Shown piece after piece: positions 7,069 through 58,319 of a DNA stretch of 64,000 nt. The DNA lies in IMG/VR virus record IMGVR_UViG_3300035152_000026, positions 86,002-150,001 of that record; one strand, 5' to 3'. The notes below the pieces were generated by a model. That model did no database searches. It worked only from the letters and a program-made list of their open reading frames with translations, and was not told the DNA's origin. The first letter of the stretch is position 1; each line of letters opens with the position of its first letter. Made by a program: the position numbers and the translations under genes. The DNA is from a virus.

Positions 7069-7713
7069 ATGCTCTTCTACGCACACAACTCACAAGGCCT
7101 CGGCGCGGTGCTCATCGAGGGCACGAACTACAAATGCGGCGCGAAGCTCTGTTACGGAGTCGATGGGGCCACGAACACGCATAGGCTGTTTCAGGATCTG
7201 CAACAGGCTGCCAACCAGGTCGCCGCACTCTTCGGGTTGGCGCCCATCGCTGTCGATGGACTCATCGGTGTCAACACCGTAACGCTCATCCGGGAGATCG
7301 CCGCACGGGTACCTGCCGCAACCGGTGCGCTCGGGCAAGCTCGGGGAGCCTTTAGCAAGGAAGTCGCAGCCAAGACTGCAACTGAGTTGACTACTCAGTT
7401 GAAGGCCCTCCTGGTGCCTCGCCCCGTCGCGACACCTTCCACGTCTCAACCGTCACCTACTGTACTCACCCCGACAACGACTGCACCGGCACAGTCCGGG
7501 GCCTCTCCCATGACCACGCCTGCTGCACAAGCCACGACGTCTGCGCCATCAACACAGGCGACGACGCCAACGCAATCAGCAGCAGCTGCGATGACATCAA
7601 TGACACCCACGCCCAAGAAGACTCCAGTACTTGCCATCGCCGGAGTCATCGGCGGAGTTGCACTCCTCGGAACGATCATCGCAGTTATCGCCGTGAGGCG
7701 CAGCGGTCACTAG
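7069..7713 (+). CDS. peptidoglycan-binding domain protein with a Thr/Pro-rich linker and a C-terminal transmembrane anchor
   Basis: IAVDGLIGVNTVTLIREI resembles a PG_binding_1 domain. A long T/P/S/A linker follows. The C-terminus VLAIAGVIGGVALLGTIIAVIAV is hydrophobic. Confidence 0.55.
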   Translation: MLFYAHNSQGLGAVLIEGTNYKCGAKLCYGVDGATNTHRLFQDLQQAANQVAALFGLAPIAVDGLIGVNTVTLIREIAARVPAATGALGQARGAFSKEVAAKTATELTTQLKALLVPRPVATPSTSQPSPTVLTPTTTAPAQSGASPMTTPAAQATTSAPSTQATTPTQSAAAAMTSMTPTPKKTPVLAIAGVIGGVALLGTIIAVIAVRRSGH

Positions 7714-21178: not shown

Positions 21179-21251
21179 ACACCCGTAGCTCGAAGGCCGA
21201 GCGTGCAGTCTGTGGAGCTGCAAGGTGGGGGTTCGATTCCCTCCGGGTGTA
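21179..21251 (+). tRNA. isolated tRNA-like gene with an ambiguous anticodon arm (9-nt loop, or 6-bp stem with GTG)
   Basis: Acceptor ACACCCG/CGGGTGT, D-arm GCTC/GAGC, T-arm GGGGG-TTCGATT-CCCTC (identical to the T-arm of tRNA-Thr at 54409). The anticodon region is TGCAG-TCTGTGGAG-CTGCA. Confidence 0.45.
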
Positions 21252-21262
21252 CCGGAGGATCG

Positions 21263-37439: not shown

Positions 37440-37667
37440 AGTCCTTGGGTACGGCGCCGAGCGTCTACCTGATGGCCGCCAAATTTGGGTTTACGAAAAT
37501 CTCGTAGTCGCGCGCTGATAGCTGCTTCACTACCACCTACGACACGATAGATCTCGTTCAACGTACGCCATTGGCCGTCGCGCATGAGAGCCAACACACG
37601 GCCGAGTTGTCCCGTCAAACGAATTTGATCGAGCGCGGGATCGTAGGTGTGTCCGCCGAACGGCACG

Positions 37668-39053
37668 CTAGCCCTCCCGATGCGCGCAGTGATCCCACTG
37701 GCTGCACATGCCGTAGCGGCTGACGCAATTAGCACGCGCTCGGGGGAAGATACCGCCGGCCATCATGAAGAGCCGCATCCCTTGCCACATCCGCAAGTCG
37801 TTCGCGTGCTGCTTTATTTGCCAGCGCTGCGGAACGACAAGCGTACGGTGGAATTGTTGTTGGCGCTGCTTACCAATGATGTTCATCATCACGCCGGTCA
37901 GCTTGCCGAATTTGCGGGTCAGCTTGAGACGCTGCCAAAGCATGATCTGGCCAATGACCTCGCCGTCGTTCTGCCAACCATCGAGTGTGGCAGTATCGAA
38001 CCTGCCAGTCGTCTTGTGTTCGACCACATACGTTCCAGCAGGAAAACGCGAGTCCGCCTTTTCAACTTTGGCAATCAGGTCGTAGCGAGCTGACTCTTTT
38101 GTCTCTGAGTCCACCACGTGGTACTCGACTGCAAGCGGTGTGATGAAGTCTTGCTCGTAGAAGAGCGCGTAGCCTGCCCAAAGGCGCCACGCTTCCATCA
38201 GAACTGCGGCATCACAACCCGCGTCGAGCAACGCCTTGTTCAGAATCTCAGGCGTGAGCGGGTAGGCTGGATCAATGAATTGCTGGTAGTACACCGCGAG
38301 GAAGGCATGAACCGCTGAACCGATCTCGATATAGTTTGGTGGACGTTCCTCTACGTACCGCAAGCCGTCGATGTATAGCCGCTTGAAGAGGTAGGGGCAG
38401 CGCTGGTACGTCGAGAAGCTTGACCAACCCAGGTCGCCCGACGCGCCACCCAACCGCGGCACCTCGTACGCCTTGAAAACCTGATGTAGGCCTTTGTCCA
38501 GCGGCGTGATGGTGAGATCACGTTCGGTAGGCAAGAGCAACGTGCCATCTTCCGCGGTAGCCGCACCTGCCGGCAATATCGACGGCACTATGTCGGCTTT
38601 CTTTGTCCGCCGCTTCCTGGGTTTGGGCGGCGGTGGCGCCGAAGGAAGCACCGGTAGTTCGTCTTCGTAGTCTTCGTCTTCGTCTACGTCTGAAATCCCG
38701 TCTGCGATCTCAGACGCAACGTCAGGTGAGTCAGTCGCGTCCGCGATAACGTCCTCGGGAGGTACCGGTGCTGCATCAACGACCGGTTGCGTGACCTCAT
38801 AGATGAAACCATCATCGGCAATGAAGTACTGACGATCGAGGCTTTCTCCCGCTGCATCTACTAGGATAGCAATGCAGGGTGCGTCGGCGTCGTGCTCGAA
38901 GATGCCTTCAGCACCGGTCGCGATGCAACGAGTACCGCAGACAACGCAGTAAACGTCGTCCTGCGTCGTCTTGATCGCGTCCGCGATCCCGTCAATACCA
39001 TAGTTTTGGGTGTCAGGTGCCGTTGTAGGCGTCATCCCGCCCTGTCTTGCCAT
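37668..39053 (-). CDS. PD-(D/E)XK nuclease, Cas4/RecB-like exonuclease with Fe-S Cys cluster and an extra acidic N-terminal domain
   Basis: Four-Cys pattern: N-proximal QRCPYLFKR plus C-terminal CVSRYGMCSQWDHC. Adjacent to the Sak4/DUF669 genes (classic phage recombination module). Confidence 0.6.
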   Translation of the reverse strand: MARQGGMTPTTAPDTQNYGIDGIADAIKTTQDDVYCVVCGTRCIATGAEGIFEHDADAPCIAILVDAAGESLDRQYFIADDGFIYEVTQPVVDAAPVPPEDVIADATDSPDVASEIADGISDVDEDEDYEDELPVLPSAPPPPKPRKRRTKKADIVPSILPAGAATAEDGTLLLPTERDLTITPLDKGLHQVFKAYEVPRLGGASGDLGWSSFSTYQRCPYLFKRLYIDGLRYVEERPPNYIEIGSAVHAFLAVYYQQFIDPAYPLTPEILNKALLDAGCDAAVLMEAWRLWAGYALFYEQDFITPLAVEYHVVDSETKESARYDLIAKVEKADSRFPAGTYVVEHKTTGRFDTATLDGWQNDGEVIGQIMLWQRLKLTRKFGKLTGVMMNIIGKQRQQQFHRTLVVPQRWQIKQHANDLRMWQGMRLFMMAGGIFPRARANCVSRYGMCSQWDHCAHREG

Positions 39054-54626: not shown

Positions 54627-55136
54627 ATGGAATGCGCCAAGTGCCACGAAGAGTTTCCTACTCGAATAGTCATAGACGGGAAGGTGCGGAACCTGTCGAG
54701 TCGTAGGTACTGCGTTTCCTGCTCCCCATTTGGGGCTAACAATCGGAAGAAGATCCACATCCACGATATAAGACGTAAGCCGACTAGGTGTAGGTTGTGC
54801 TCAGGGAAGCTAGTCCCCGGGAAAGGGGATGTATGCTACACCTGTCGATCTAGGATTAGGCGATATCGGGTGAAGGTTGCGGCTATAACCCTCCTTGGCG
54901 GAAAGTGTCAACGCTGTGGTTTCTCAGGGAGTCCAGCAGCCTTTGAGTTCCACCACAACGGTAAGAAGGACTTTCAGATCAGCGAGAACAGCAACCGAGC
55001 GTGGGCTGTAGTCAAGAAGGAAGTTCTGAAATGCGAACTCCTGTGTTCCAATTGCCATCGACAGGAGCACACTGGAGATAGGGGGGAGGCGTTCCTTCGT
55101 GCCGTAGCGGAGTACAGAGGGATGCCCCTGACCTGA
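54627..55136 (+). CDS. HNH endonuclease inserted in the tRNA array (homing-endonuclease-like)
   Basis: Cys pairs CAKCH/CVSC and CQRCG; FEFHH...CSNCHRQEH is the HNH motif. Local GC is lower than the flanks. Confidence 0.7.
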   Translation: MECAKCHEEFPTRIVIDGKVRNLSSRRYCVSCSPFGANNRKKIHIHDIRRKPTRCRLCSGKLVPGKGDVCYTCRSRIRRYRVKVAAITLLGGKCQRCGFSGSPAAFEFHHNGKKDFQISENSNRAWAVVKKEVLKCELLCSNCHRQEHTGDRGEAFLRAVAEYRGMPLT

Positions 55137-55479: not shown

Positions 55480-55550
55480 TCCCCTGTAGCTCAACAGGAG
55501 AGCACTCGCTTGATAAGCGAGAGATGACAGCGCAACTCTGTCCGGGGGAA
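55480..55550 (+). tRNA. trnI: tRNA-Ile (GAT), atypical T-loop CGCAACT
   Basis: Acceptor TCCCCTG/CGGGGGA, anticodon CTCGC-TTGATAA-GCGAG. Confidence 0.55.
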
Positions 55551-55555
55551 CTGAT

Positions 55556-55630
55556 GGTGGGCGTAGCTCAATGGCAGAGCGCGCGGTTGTGGCCCGCGTG
55601 ATGGAAGTTCGATTCTTCTCGCTCACCCCA
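55556..55630 (+). tRNA. trnH: tRNA-His (GTG) with encoded G-1, C73 discriminator and CCA
   Basis: G-1 precedes acceptor GTGGGCG/CGCTCAC. Anticodon CGCGG-TTGTGGC-CCGCG. T GGAAG-TTCGATT-CTTCT. Confidence 0.7.
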
Positions 55631-55644
55631 AGAAGTCATAGTTA

Positions 55645-55680
55645 GAGCGGGAAGTGCAGGTTCGATTCCTGTCGGTTGCG
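55645..55680 (+). pseudogene. orphan tRNA 3' fragment (T-arm GCAGG-TTCGATT-CCTGT plus acceptor-like 3' strand); decayed partial duplicate of the tRNA-Pro(TGG) 3' half
   Basis: AGTGCAGGTTCGATTCCTGTCGGTTGCG vs the Pro 3' half GCATGCAGGTTCGAGTCCTGTCGCTCCG. There is no room for a 5' half after tRNA-His. Confidence 0.4.
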
Positions 55681-55721
55681 GTCGCCGCGCCGTGGTGTAA
55701 CAAGGGAGCACGCTCGCGTTT

Positions 55722-55793: not shown

Positions 55794-55865
55794 CGGCTAG
55801 AGGTGTGGCGCGAAAGCGAAGCCCTAAACCGTCACCTCCGAGCGGGTGCGAGGCCCGCATTTGTT

Positions 55866-55936
55866 GGCCCAGTAGCACAACGGCAGGGCGCTTGCCTTAT
55901 AAGCGAGTGATCTAGGTTCAACTCCTAGCTGGGCTA
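55866..55936 (+). tRNA. tRNA-Ile (TAT) (rare AUA-reading anticodon as encoded)
   Basis: Acceptor GGCCCAG/CTGGGCT, anticodon CTTGC-CTTATAA-GCGAG, T CTAGG-TTCAACT-CCTAG. Confidence 0.5.
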
Positions 55937-55947
55937 CAAATCCGTTT

Positions 55948-56020
55948 GCCACCCAAGCTAACCAAGTGGAAGCGCCGGCCTGAAAAGCCGGAGGGCTCGG
56001 AGCGTTACCGAGGAGTGGCA
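55948..56020 (+). tRNA. tRNA-Phe (GAA)-like with a non-canonical T-loop
   Basis: Acceptor GCCACCC/GAGTGGC (one mismatch), anticodon CCGGC-CTGAAAA-GCCGG (canonical Phe loop), T-like CTCGG-AGCGTTA-CCGAG. Confidence 0.35.
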
Positions 56021-56067
56021 CGGCCAAGAGACGGACGCGTCTCCGAGCGGGTGGAAGGCCCGCACAA

Positions 56068-56139
56068 GGGCCAATAGTGATAAAGGGAACACGCTGCTTT
56101 CGCACGGCAGAGATCTGGGTTCGATTCCCAGTTGGTCCA
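56068..56139 (+). tRNA. trnA: tRNA-Ala (CGC)
   Basis: Acceptor GGGCCAA/TTGGTCC, anticodon CTGCT-TTCGCAC-GGCAG, T CTGGG-TTCGATT-CCCAG. Confidence 0.55.
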
Positions 56140-56306
56140 CAATGCAGGAGCACGTACCTGCCTTGCTGCTGGGCGAACAGACAGCGTAGTCGGGCTTAGC
56201 TAGCTGCGGACTTGCTGGGAGCTTCCAGTATTGGCCTCTGAGGAGGGACGCCTCTGTTCGAGGAGGAGACAAAAACGTGTCGGCGGGGTTAGTTCCTCGT
56301 CGTTAT

Positions 56307-56379
56307 GGGCACCCATGTACCAAGGGGGCGATCTGGCCTTGCAAGCCGGATGTGGTCGGTTCGATCCCGACGGTGTCCA
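56307..56379 (+). tRNA. tRNA-like, Ala (TGC)-type anticodon loop CTTGCAA, irregular D-arm
   Basis: Acceptor GGGCACC/GGTGTCC, T GTCGG-TTCGATC-CCGAC. The D region does not fold canonically. Confidence 0.35.
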
Positions 56380-56403
56380 CGAGCGGGTGGAAGGCCCGCC
56401 TAA

Positions 56404-56475
56404 GGGCTGCTAGTGATAACGGGAACACATCTGGTTTGCACCCAGAAGATCGGGGTTCGATTCCCCGGCGGTCCA
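56404..56475 (+). tRNA. trnA: tRNA-Ala (TGC)
   Basis: Acceptor GGGCTGC/GCGGTCC, anticodon TCTGG-TTTGCAC-CCAGA, T CGGGG-TTCGATT-CCCCG. Confidence 0.55.
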
Positions 56476-56479
56476 CGAC

Positions 56480-57770: not shown

Positions 57771-58319
57771 ATGGACACGTTGGTTCTCGATCAGTCCTAC
57801 TTGCCCGTGGCGCGGATCCACTGGCAACGTGCAATCACTTTGCTCTTCCTTGGCAAGGTAGAGGTCGTGGATGAATACACCGACAGAAACATCCGGTCGG
57901 TGACGTTCTCGATCAAGATGCCATCCGTCGTTCGATTCATCACGCGGATGCGACGAAAGAAGCGTGTCGTGAAGTTCTCACGCGAGAACGTCTACACACG
58001 CGATCACGGAAGGTGCCAGTACTGTGGAGATCAAGTGCCACGTCTGGAGGCTACCTATGATCACGTTGTGCCGCGAACGCTCGGCGGGCAAACGACCTGG
58101 GAGAACGTAGTCATCTGTTGCGTAGCGTGCAACCAACAGAAGGGTGGACGAACGCCACAACAAGCCGGCATGCGACTACGATCGAAGCCGGTGAAGCCAA
58201 AGAAGCTGCCTGACGTACACATCACAGTGACGTGGACGCCCGGCATGCCCGAGGCGTGGCGTGCATGGACATGGAAGGTAAACCAGGCGGGGCCTGGGCC
58301 TGCCTCGAAAGCAGCGTGA
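57771..58319 (+). CDS. HNH endonuclease (HNHc domain) inserted in the tRNA array
   Basis: CQYCG...YDHVVPRTLGG...NVVICCVACNQQKG is the canonical HNH motif. Confidence 0.75.
   Translation: MDTLVLDQSYLPVARIHWQRAITLLFLGKVEVVDEYTDRNIRSVTFSIKMPSVVRFITRMRRKKRVVKFSRENVYTRDHGRCQYCGDQVPRLEATYDHVVPRTLGGQTTWENVVICCVACNQQKGGRTPQQAGMRLRSKPVKPKKLPDVHITVTWTPGMPEAWRAWTWKVNQAGPGPASKAA

Follow-up and report, generated by a model that had tools for sequence, protein, structure and literature searches.

The hairpins and their surroundings

The stretch analysed here, called the window below, comprises 64,000 nucleotides (nt) from a virus (positions 86,002 to 150,001 of IMG/VR record IMGVR_UViG_3300035152_000026). 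ARAGORN and the Rfam transfer RNA (tRNA) model place at least 35 tRNA genes in an array of about 5 kb within the window, and inside this array sit three copies of a 20-nt hairpin motif, CGAGCGGGTG(G/C)(A/G)AGGCCCGC, each shortly before a tRNA (Table 1). The motif belongs to a hairpin family that is widespread in phages and apparently undescribed. An exact search for CGAGCGGGTGSRAGGCCCGC returned the three sites, all on the plus strand and confined to 560 nt of the 64 kb, and no fourth site was found in the window even when three mismatches were allowed. By chance 0.06 copies are expected, and none of 100 shuffles reached three.

In every copy the stem GCGGG/CCCGC holds a 7-nt loop, UG(G/C)(A/G)AGG, just as the original prediction had it; a sixth pair, U-G, closing a 5-nt loop is the alternative. 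Folded in isolation, the 20-mer reaches -10.5 kcal/mol (z = -2.3 and -3.2). The coordinates first given were exact for the third copy and off by -3 and +3 nt for the first two (55842-55861 and 56041-56060). The gaps between hairpins and tRNAs agree with the 4-7 nt that had been predicted, and the third copy does begin on the base after the discriminator, A56379, of the preceding tRNA-Ala. Copies 1 and 2 are preceded by a further, variable hairpin (H1); at copy 3, the acceptor helix of the upstream tRNA-Ala stands in for it.

Table 1. Hairpin copies, adjoining features of the tRNA array (window coordinates) and cultured phages carrying relatives of the motif
Feature	Position	Strand	Description	Basis
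Motif copy 1	55839..55858	+	CGA linker 55839-55841, hairpin GCGGG-UGCGAGG-CCCGC 55842-55858; then AUUUGUU and tRNA-Ile(TAT)	Covariance model, 39.7 bits; terminator-like flag
Motif copy 2	56044..56063	+	CGA + GCGGG-UGGAAGG-CCCGC; then ACAA and tRNA-Ala(CGC)	Covariance model, 37.8 bits
Motif copy 3	56380..56399	+	CGA + GCGGG-UGGAAGG-CCCGC; then CUAA and tRNA-Ala(TGC)	Covariance model, 31.6 bits
H1 of copy 1	55800..55838	+	Long variable hairpin GAGGUG...CACCUC, abutting the CGA linker	Minimum free energy fold of 55795-55865
H1 of copy 2	56028..56043	+	Short hairpin GAGACG-GACG-CGUCUC	Minimum free energy fold of 56021-56067, z = -2.2
tRNA-Ile(TAT)	55866..55937	+	7 nt 3' of copy 1	ARAGORN; Rfam tRNA model, 58.1 bits
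tRNA with GAA anticodon (Phe)	55948..56020	+	5' of H1 and copy 2; missed by ARAGORN	Rfam tRNA model, 36 bits against a gathering score of 29
tRNA-Ala(CGC)	56068..56140	+	4 nt 3' of copy 2	ARAGORN; Rfam tRNA model
tRNA-Ala(TGC) without encoded CCA	56307..56379	+	Discriminator abuts copy 3	ARAGORN
tRNA-Ala(TGC)	56404..56476	+	4 nt 3' of copy 3; paralogue of the tRNA at 56068	ARAGORN; Rfam tRNA model
Candidate sigma70-like promoter	53661..53688	+	TTGACA-16-TATTCT, about 190 nt 5' of the first tRNA	Consensus scan only
Lactobacillus phage phig1e	NC_004305 37613-37639		Between Rorf242 and the DnaD gene; single copy in the complete 42-kb genome	
Lactobacillus phage Sha1			Cultured carrier, divergent variant	
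Hujiaoplasma phage zrk29-2			Cultured carrier, divergent variant	

A recent duplication of a tRNA with its flank had been named as the finding that would undo the prediction. Copies 2 and 3 are identical at 20 of 20 positions (18-20 of 20 across all three copies); the paralogous tRNA-Ala genes behind them have visibly diverged, with compensatory substitutions in both acceptor and anticodon stems, and the 5' flanks of the three copies have nothing in common. Because the likeness of the copies does not run evenly into the flanks, they are not the residue of a duplication. A dispersed repeat resembling repetitive extragenic palindromes or miniature inverted-repeat transposable elements was rejected on the same grounds, together with the occurrence of relatives in hundreds of unrelated contigs. 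No close relatives of the phage were found among viral or metagenome contigs, the neighbouring helicase showed at most 33% identity to cultured phages by tblastn, and blastn of the hairpin region matched tRNAs only.

A hairpin family with a covarying stem

A first scan of viral contigs with the pattern GAGCGGGTGNNAGGCCCGC retrieved 76 loci, some AT-rich, whose flanks are unrelated. Positions that the pattern had left free proved to be non-random: the fourth loop base is a purine in 74 of 76 loci, C precedes the motif in 65 of 72, and A follows it in 64%. Five further scans of viral contigs each freed one stem pair and applied no pairing filter. At pair 2 (N3-N17), all 127 non-identical matches were paired (CG 61, UA 37, AU 14, GC 10, UG 3 and GU 2), with no case of the ten non-pairing combinations (p about 1e-54). 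Pairing was likewise kept in 83 of 98 double variants of pair 3 (CG 38, AU 27, UA 14 and UG 4) and in 64 of 84 of pair 1 (AU 42, CG 17). When G5-C15 or G6-C14 was freed, matches were few, paired at chance level (4/9 and 16/31) and mostly within coding sequence, so that the loop-proximal pairs 4 and 5 are regarded as invariant G-C.

Compensatory stem changes, which the original prediction had suggested looking for in related phages, are thus present in hundreds of unrelated viral contigs. At the level of sequence comparison they are the proof that the hairpin forms. Read from the opposite strand, the U-G and G-U wobbles would become A-C mismatches; it is therefore the sense strand that folds, as RNA or possibly as single-stranded DNA.

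The conservation extends beyond the stem. When metagenomes were scanned with an unconstrained 5' flank, CGA was the commonest trinucleotide (27 of 116, against 1.6% expected) and CAA and CGG came next; the remaining trinucleotides were scattered, and the recurrent GCT matches lay in apparent coding sequence. With 206 non-redundant members collected, the family consensus reads C-R-R-[NNNGG]-U-G-N-R-A-(G/A)-G-[CCN'N'N']-A-Y-Y, where R is a purine and Y a pyrimidine. The 3' end of H1 falls exactly at position -2 in 45% of members, compared with 12% of control windows, which leaves the three-base C-R-R linker; H1 is missing in about half of the family. The hairpin is followed by A (67%), two pyrimidines (80% and 72%) and a U-rich, G-poor stretch. 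On this comparative record the hairpin is a selected, sequence-specific element of the sense strand, under strong selection.

Several further features were sought and rejected. An enclosing helix between the flanks found no favour, true flank pairs scoring no better than mismatched or shuffled partners, and a pseudoknot between loop and flank was dismissed when N9 and R10 showed no covariation at any register, upstream or downstream. Positions +19 to +21 read A-Y-Y with no preference for ACC(A), which disposes of an ACCA-like 3' tail, and the distance from the upstream stop codon is spread from 13 to 150 nt. Likenesses of CCGAGCGG to the D-arm of class II tRNAs, signal recognition particle RNA, the sarcin-ricin loop, 16S helix 12, domain 5 of group II introns and hammerhead flanks were set aside, as they rest on particular loop variants or on variable positions.

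The stop-rich words CTAG and GACTAG found upstream reflect the non-coding nature of the spacer, together with an extra conserved hairpin in one subfamily (L044, L236, L244 and L245). This additional hairpin lies about 45-60 nt 5' of the motif; its stem covaries (GUCC/GGAC against GGAGC/GCUCC) and its loop, GACUAGRGRUCAUA, is conserved. In some members of the subfamily the motif is followed by a boxA-like tail, UUUUUAACAAUCC.

A cmscan search of the window and 15 loci against the families of Rfam 15, including HDV-like, hammerhead and other ribozymes, tRNA and tRNA-like RNAs, gave no match at the motif with E up to 1-5. Literature searches by sequence string (which hit unrelated primers only) and by keyword did not find a published description.

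Genomic placement, carriers and hosts

Members of the family are intergenic and co-oriented with both neighbouring genes. The median distance from the hairpin to the next start codon is 26 nt (interquartile range 19-34). A tRNA starts 3-9 nt downstream of 11 non-redundant relatives, or 14 cases with the three window copies, and none of the non-redundant relatives has a tRNA start 10-40 nt downstream. The tRNAs behind the 11 relatives are specific for Leu, Met, Thr, Gln, Asp or Pro, or of undetermined identity. One locus (L287) has in a single operon an open reading frame (ORF), H1, the hairpin, 3 nt, tRNA-Thr and another ORF. The family as a whole is not specific to tRNAs; about 95% of relatives precede protein genes. 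These neighbouring genes are diverse, encoding DNA polymerase, SSB, nucleases, DnaD, terminase, capsid proteins and many small ORFs, and no recurring protein family was found among the neighbours or downstream genes of members.

Usually there is one copy per locus (loci of up to about 15 kb), with two copies in some contigs (L016, L080, L249, L257, L334, L506 and L512). In L016, both copies lie in the leader behind a strong promoter, TTGACA-17-TATGCT. In another case of two copies (L249, IMGVR_UViG_3300024336_000005, a 204-kb contig), a unit of H1, hairpin and tRNA-like gene is duplicated at 1060-1500, mirroring the window; its upstream copy has a CGG linker and an A-U first pair (CGGAGGGGUGAAAGGCCCCU).

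The exact form of the motif with a G-C pair 1 was absent from 50,697 cultured phages, and cultured carriers emerged only once pair 1 was allowed to vary (Table 1). No protein common to phig1e and the window was detected. Within one family of Lactobacillus prophages, the orthologous hairpin has pair 1 as G-C or A-U and pair 2 as U-A or C-A. A search of 596 Gb of bacterial genomes turned up just 45 occurrences of the exact form; part of these matches are due to chance in GC-rich coding DNA, and the others look like members carried by prophages of Proteobacteria, Bacteroidota, Planctomycetota, Firmicutes and other phyla.

Some individual occurrences deserve mention. In phig1e (37600-37680; L436/L439), the annotated coding sequence Rorf242 reads through H1 and the hairpin. 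Related prophages have the same 68-nt block after the stop codons of unrelated genes (nuclease, SSB), and the annotated 3' end of Rorf242 may for this reason be wrong, or a fossil. In Gilvimarinus sp. (L077, NZ_JAUOQM010000022.1, about 7140-7200) the motif lies within a spacer of a CRISPR array (repeat GTTCCCCGCAGGCGCGGGGATTAACCG), and the host has therefore gained immunity against a phage region carrying the element. ARAGORN calls overlap the motif in one of 123 instances. This call, a 'tRNA-Lys(CTT)' on the minus strand of L005 (715-790), takes its 5' part from the motif and continues with a good T-arm and an acceptor 3' strand, so that the element may here be fused to the 3' half of a tRNA as a chimera. 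In L040 (IMGVR_UViG_3300048599_000143), the exact motif lies inside an ORF of 3492 amino acids, the size of an N4-like virion RNA polymerase, and is either a chance coding occurrence or an intragenic member.

Likeness to the T-arm and a possible punctuation role

The hairpin has much in common with the T-arm of tRNA, including the 5-bp stem and 7-nt loop, fixed G-C pairs at positions 52-62 and 53-61, three outer pairs that covary, and a loop with U54, R57 (loop position 4) and A58 (loop position 5). The 38 T-arms of the window have the same gradient: 97% of them have G-C at pair 53-61 and 71% at pair 52-62, with variation at all three outer pairs. T-loop motifs have the pentanucleotide consensus U-(G/U)-N-R-A, an example being UGAAA in J11/12 of RNase P, and the UGNRA of the hairpin agrees with it. 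The T-arm-like pattern of conservation strengthens the original reading as a processing signal or tRNA-like punctuation, which is the most attractive one. We put it forward tentatively, as a possibility: the hairpin may be a tRNA mimic that punctuates RNA for its processing or stability.

A family member comprises the variable H1, the 3-nt C-R-R linker (mostly CGA), the 5-bp hairpin, an A and a short pyrimidine-rich tail, and is proposed to act in cis on the sense transcript. Its reader could be the universal tRNA-maturation machinery, with RNase P as the prime candidate, or another enzyme that reads T-arms; alternatively, the hairpin may serve as a mere defined structural barrier. Cuts in the polycistronic transcript would fall within the short single-stranded stretches flanking the hairpin, whereby the upstream RNA would be capped by a protective 3' hairpin and the downstream tRNA or mRNA freed. 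At copy 3, a cut 5' of CGA would let the CCA-less tRNA-Ala end at its discriminator, the exact 3' end for CCA addition. A universal host partner, or else a function autonomous to the RNA, is probable because the carriers span several phyla and have no phage protein in common. A narrower version, which we consider rather doubtful, takes the minimal T-arm mimic as a portable punctuation mark, read by host RNase P or another T-arm reader on mRNAs and tRNA arrays. If true, it would be a bacterial-virus counterpart, of about 20 nt, to the tRNA punctuation of mitochondria and the 3'-end formation of MALAT1/mascRNA, with no need for a whole tRNA.

A number of observations weigh against the punctuation reading. 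Position 55 is G in the hairpin and U or pseudouridine in tRNA, position 56 is unconstrained where tRNA has C, and R and G are fixed at positions 59 and 60; with a loop that differs at these four places, the hairpin is not a canonical T-arm. The same nucleotides can equally be read as a protein-bound GNRA-type loop closed by U-G or U-A, as in the lambdoid boxB. Compared with a tRNA, the hairpin has no D-arm partner, stacked acceptor helix or cloverleaf, and the Rfam tRNA model gives it no score; nor was an enclosing helix able to provide an acceptor stem found in the flanks. A 5-bp T-arm mimic that lacks a stacked acceptor helix is not known to be a good substrate of either RNase P or RNase Z. 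Typical RNase E or RNase Y sites are AU-rich, which the CGA linker is not, and about a third of members have a U-tract, which fits a terminator. An upstream tRNA is abutted in one case only, that of copy 3, and the suggested mechanism is drawn from anatomy.

Alternative readings

Somewhat unlikely, in our estimate, is a boxB-like operator, in which the upper stem and GNRA-type loop bind a small phage or host protein that either modifies RNA polymerase, for nut-like processive antitermination or anti-pausing, or controls translation of the following gene; within the tRNA array, which is untranslated, its effect would be to sustain transcription. The geometry resembles that of the lambda and P22 boxB, with a 5-bp GC stem, U closing the loop, and G-N-R-A plus one purine. 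Free outer pairs combined with fixed inner pairs and loop fit a protein that touches only the loop-proximal part, and N9 and R10 have no other pairing partner. The promoter-driven leader with two copies in L016 is also as expected of such an operator, as is the position of the lone phig1e copy within the early replication operon. However, no protein family is common to the neighbourhoods or to phig1e and the window, though arginine-rich motifs escape BLAST and were not systematically searched. There is no consistent boxA-like partner: a CGCUCUUA-like word is not consistently present near members, and a UUUAACAA-like tail occurs in one subfamily only. To our knowledge, N-type systems are confined to lambdoid phages, whereas the carriers here include Firmicutes phages and prophage-like regions in Proteobacteria, Bacteroidota and Planctomycetota. 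Further, an operator of this kind does not demand the tight spacing of 3-9 nt to tRNAs.

A leaky intrinsic terminator or pause hairpin, which would tune the stoichiometry of upstream and downstream RNA and for which sequence conservation would be secondary, appears unlikely. Every member has the hairpin, and TTT is found within 8 nt downstream in 31% of members and 5-7% of controls, and at least five U in 8 nt in 17% against 3%. Copy 1 (GCGGGUGCGAGGCCCGC AUUUGUU) was found by a terminator scan, the sole window copy so found; in L080 the motif lies at a convergent gene junction and is followed by ACCUUUUUAC, and AAUUUUUU follows the copies of L506. The U-tract is nevertheless missing in two thirds of members, including window copies 2 (ACAA) and 3 (CUAA), and efficient termination would silence the tRNAs or genes 3-35 nt downstream because that distance leaves no room for a promoter. 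With two thirds of members lacking a U-tract and functional RNAs so close behind, the family does not look like one of canonical terminators. Moreover, a stable stem would suffice for termination, and the invariant G5-C15, G6-C14, U7, R10 and A11 and the fixed 5' C-R-R would be unneeded.

We regard it as improbable that the motif is at bottom a conserved module linker or, like the PeSL elements of T4-like phages, a mobile regulatory cassette, of about 20-70 nt, spread by inter-phage recombination that carries tRNAs and small genes, with any RNA function secondary. Such a cassette is suggested by the 68-nt block of H1 and hairpin, which is 97% identical between phig1e and L326 with both flanks unrelated. 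In the Lactobacillus prophages the upstream gene is of the nuclease, SSB or Rorf242 type, and two different DnaD-type genes occur downstream. L249, L506 and the window contain duplicated units, either of hairpin and tRNA or of gene and hairpin, and the crowding of the window copies into one short segment points the same way. Most carriers, in contrast, have only about 20 nt in common, and the covariation of stem pairs within these indicates selection on the folded structure and not on DNA identity. The strand-specific wobbles and the strict co-orientation with transcription likewise point to an RNA function. A linker role is not exclusive of the other readings, with which it is compatible.

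A small self-cleaving ribozyme, with H1, the CGA linker and the hairpin as the catalytic unit, is very unlikely. Some 16 conserved nucleotides do gather around the linker between the two hairpins, and the element is host-independent, phage-specific and tRNA-adjacent like the theta ribozymes, which resemble those of hepatitis delta virus (HDV) (PMC10879173). Yet none of the Rfam ribozyme models gave a match, covariation indicative of a pseudoknot is absent, and about half of members have no H1. An HDV-like nested pseudoknot is impossible because only 7 nt separate the two stem strands. Catalytic cores, moreover, do not typically consist of conserved Watson-Crick GG/CC pairs and a simple loop.

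Least probable of all, and hardly to be expected, is that the motif is a promoter element or else merely left over from local duplication or due to chance, in spite of the frequent purine after the hairpin, the leader-like distances to tRNAs and start codons and the paralogy of the tRNA-Ala genes behind copies 2 and 3: upstream sequence is not conserved, -10 and -35 elements and full sigma70 promoters show no positional enrichment near members, stem covariation would be senseless in a double-stranded promoter, the L016 copies lie inside the leader of an upstream promoter, there is no RNA polymerase gene in carriers such as phig1e, and the unrelated 5' sequences of the three copies, the hundreds of unrelated contigs and the small number of copies expected by chance tell against the remainder. 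The small promoter element allowed for by the original prediction is not supported.

Other features of the tRNA array

The candidate promoter of Table 1 is the sole strong sigma70-like match in the region, and the array transcript carrying the three hairpins likely starts there. A tRNA at 55480-55550 was missed by ARAGORN and scores 59.9 bits with the Rfam tRNA model; it reads as tRNA-Ile(GAT) and has a non-canonical T-loop, GACAG-CGCAACU-CUGUC. Two free-standing HNH endonuclease ORFs, at 54627-55136 and 57771-58319 (PHROG, 4.6e-32 and 4.8e-37), break up the array and are probably homing endonucleases. The 166-nt spacer between tRNA-Ala(CGC) and tRNA-Ala(TGC), at 56141-56306, is the biggest unexplained gap beside the hairpins; it gave no tRNA, Rfam match or convincing ORF, and its fold stability is ordinary (z = -1.3). 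A 91-nt gap past tRNA-His (55631-55721) has a good T-arm, GCAGG-TTCGATT-CCTGT, and no complete tRNA, and looks like a truncated or degenerate tRNA gene. A lone tRNA-His(GTG) lies at 21179-21253, about 32 kb off the array, which contains a second tRNA-His(GTG) at 55557-55630.

Significance

If the family is as it seems, it is among the most widely dispersed small cis-acting RNA signals of tailed phages, with carriers whose apparent hosts span Firmicutes, Proteobacteria, Bacteroidota and Planctomycetota. Conservation across these hosts without a common phage protein argues for direct contact with a universal host machine, be it tRNA-processing enzymes, RNA polymerase or the ribosome. The identity of this partner would reveal how phages delimit and stabilize the individual segments of a polycistronic RNA, among them the long tRNA arrays without CCA in large phages, the maturation of which is poorly understood. 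A host-independent processing, insulating or regulatory module of 20 nt would also be of use to synthetic biology. In addition, the consensus provides a new annotation feature for phage genomes, for instance in phig1e, where an annotated ORF crosses the hairpin.

Comparison with known systems

The boxB sites of lambdoid phages, GCCCUGAAAAAGGGC in lambda and GCGCUGACAAAGCGC in P22, resemble the family in their short GC-rich stem, the U at the loop-closing position and a GNRA-like loop with an extra purine. They also lie on the sense strand of transcribed intergenic or leader regions of phage operons, with one or few copies per genome. The family differs in that no boxA or N-like protein was found with it and its carriers are non-lambdoid and cross several phyla; its loop is GNRA+R, compared with GNR(N)A in boxB, and it has the C-R-R 5' flank and the abutting H1. 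Intrinsic (Rho-independent) terminators are similar as GC-rich hairpins past an upstream stop codon, with a U-rich tail in about a third of our members, but the stem of the family is short (5-6 bp) and conserved in sequence, and RNAs follow 3-35 nt on without a promoter between.

The PeSL elements, reportedly described by Arbiol and colleagues in 2010, are mobile regulatory cassettes of T4-type phages that combine an early promoter with a stem-loop and belong to one lineage. Like the present family, they are small, conserved stem-loop cassettes between genes, which border on variable genes of small size and lie where modules meet. The hairpin family, unlike PeSL, is promoterless, covaries as RNA and crosses phage and host lineages.

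The HDV-like theta ribozymes are found at tRNA 3' ends and have a double-pseudoknot fold (PMC10879173). Both they and the hairpin are small structured RNAs of Caudoviricetes beside tRNA genes, and copy 3 is in a 3'-trailer position; the family, however, is a simple hairpin that at tRNAs is usually upstream and is mostly not near tRNAs. The put RNA of HK022, about 70 nt long and restricted to HK022-like phages, has a triple helix and stems that are elaborately bulged (PMC9378689). It has no match to the family in sequence or architecture. It does resemble the family in that a pair of neighbouring stem-loops in the nascent phage RNA works in cis and needs no dedicated protein, and its partner, RNA polymerase, is universal (PMC9378689); such a partner would explain the conservation of the hairpin across phyla.

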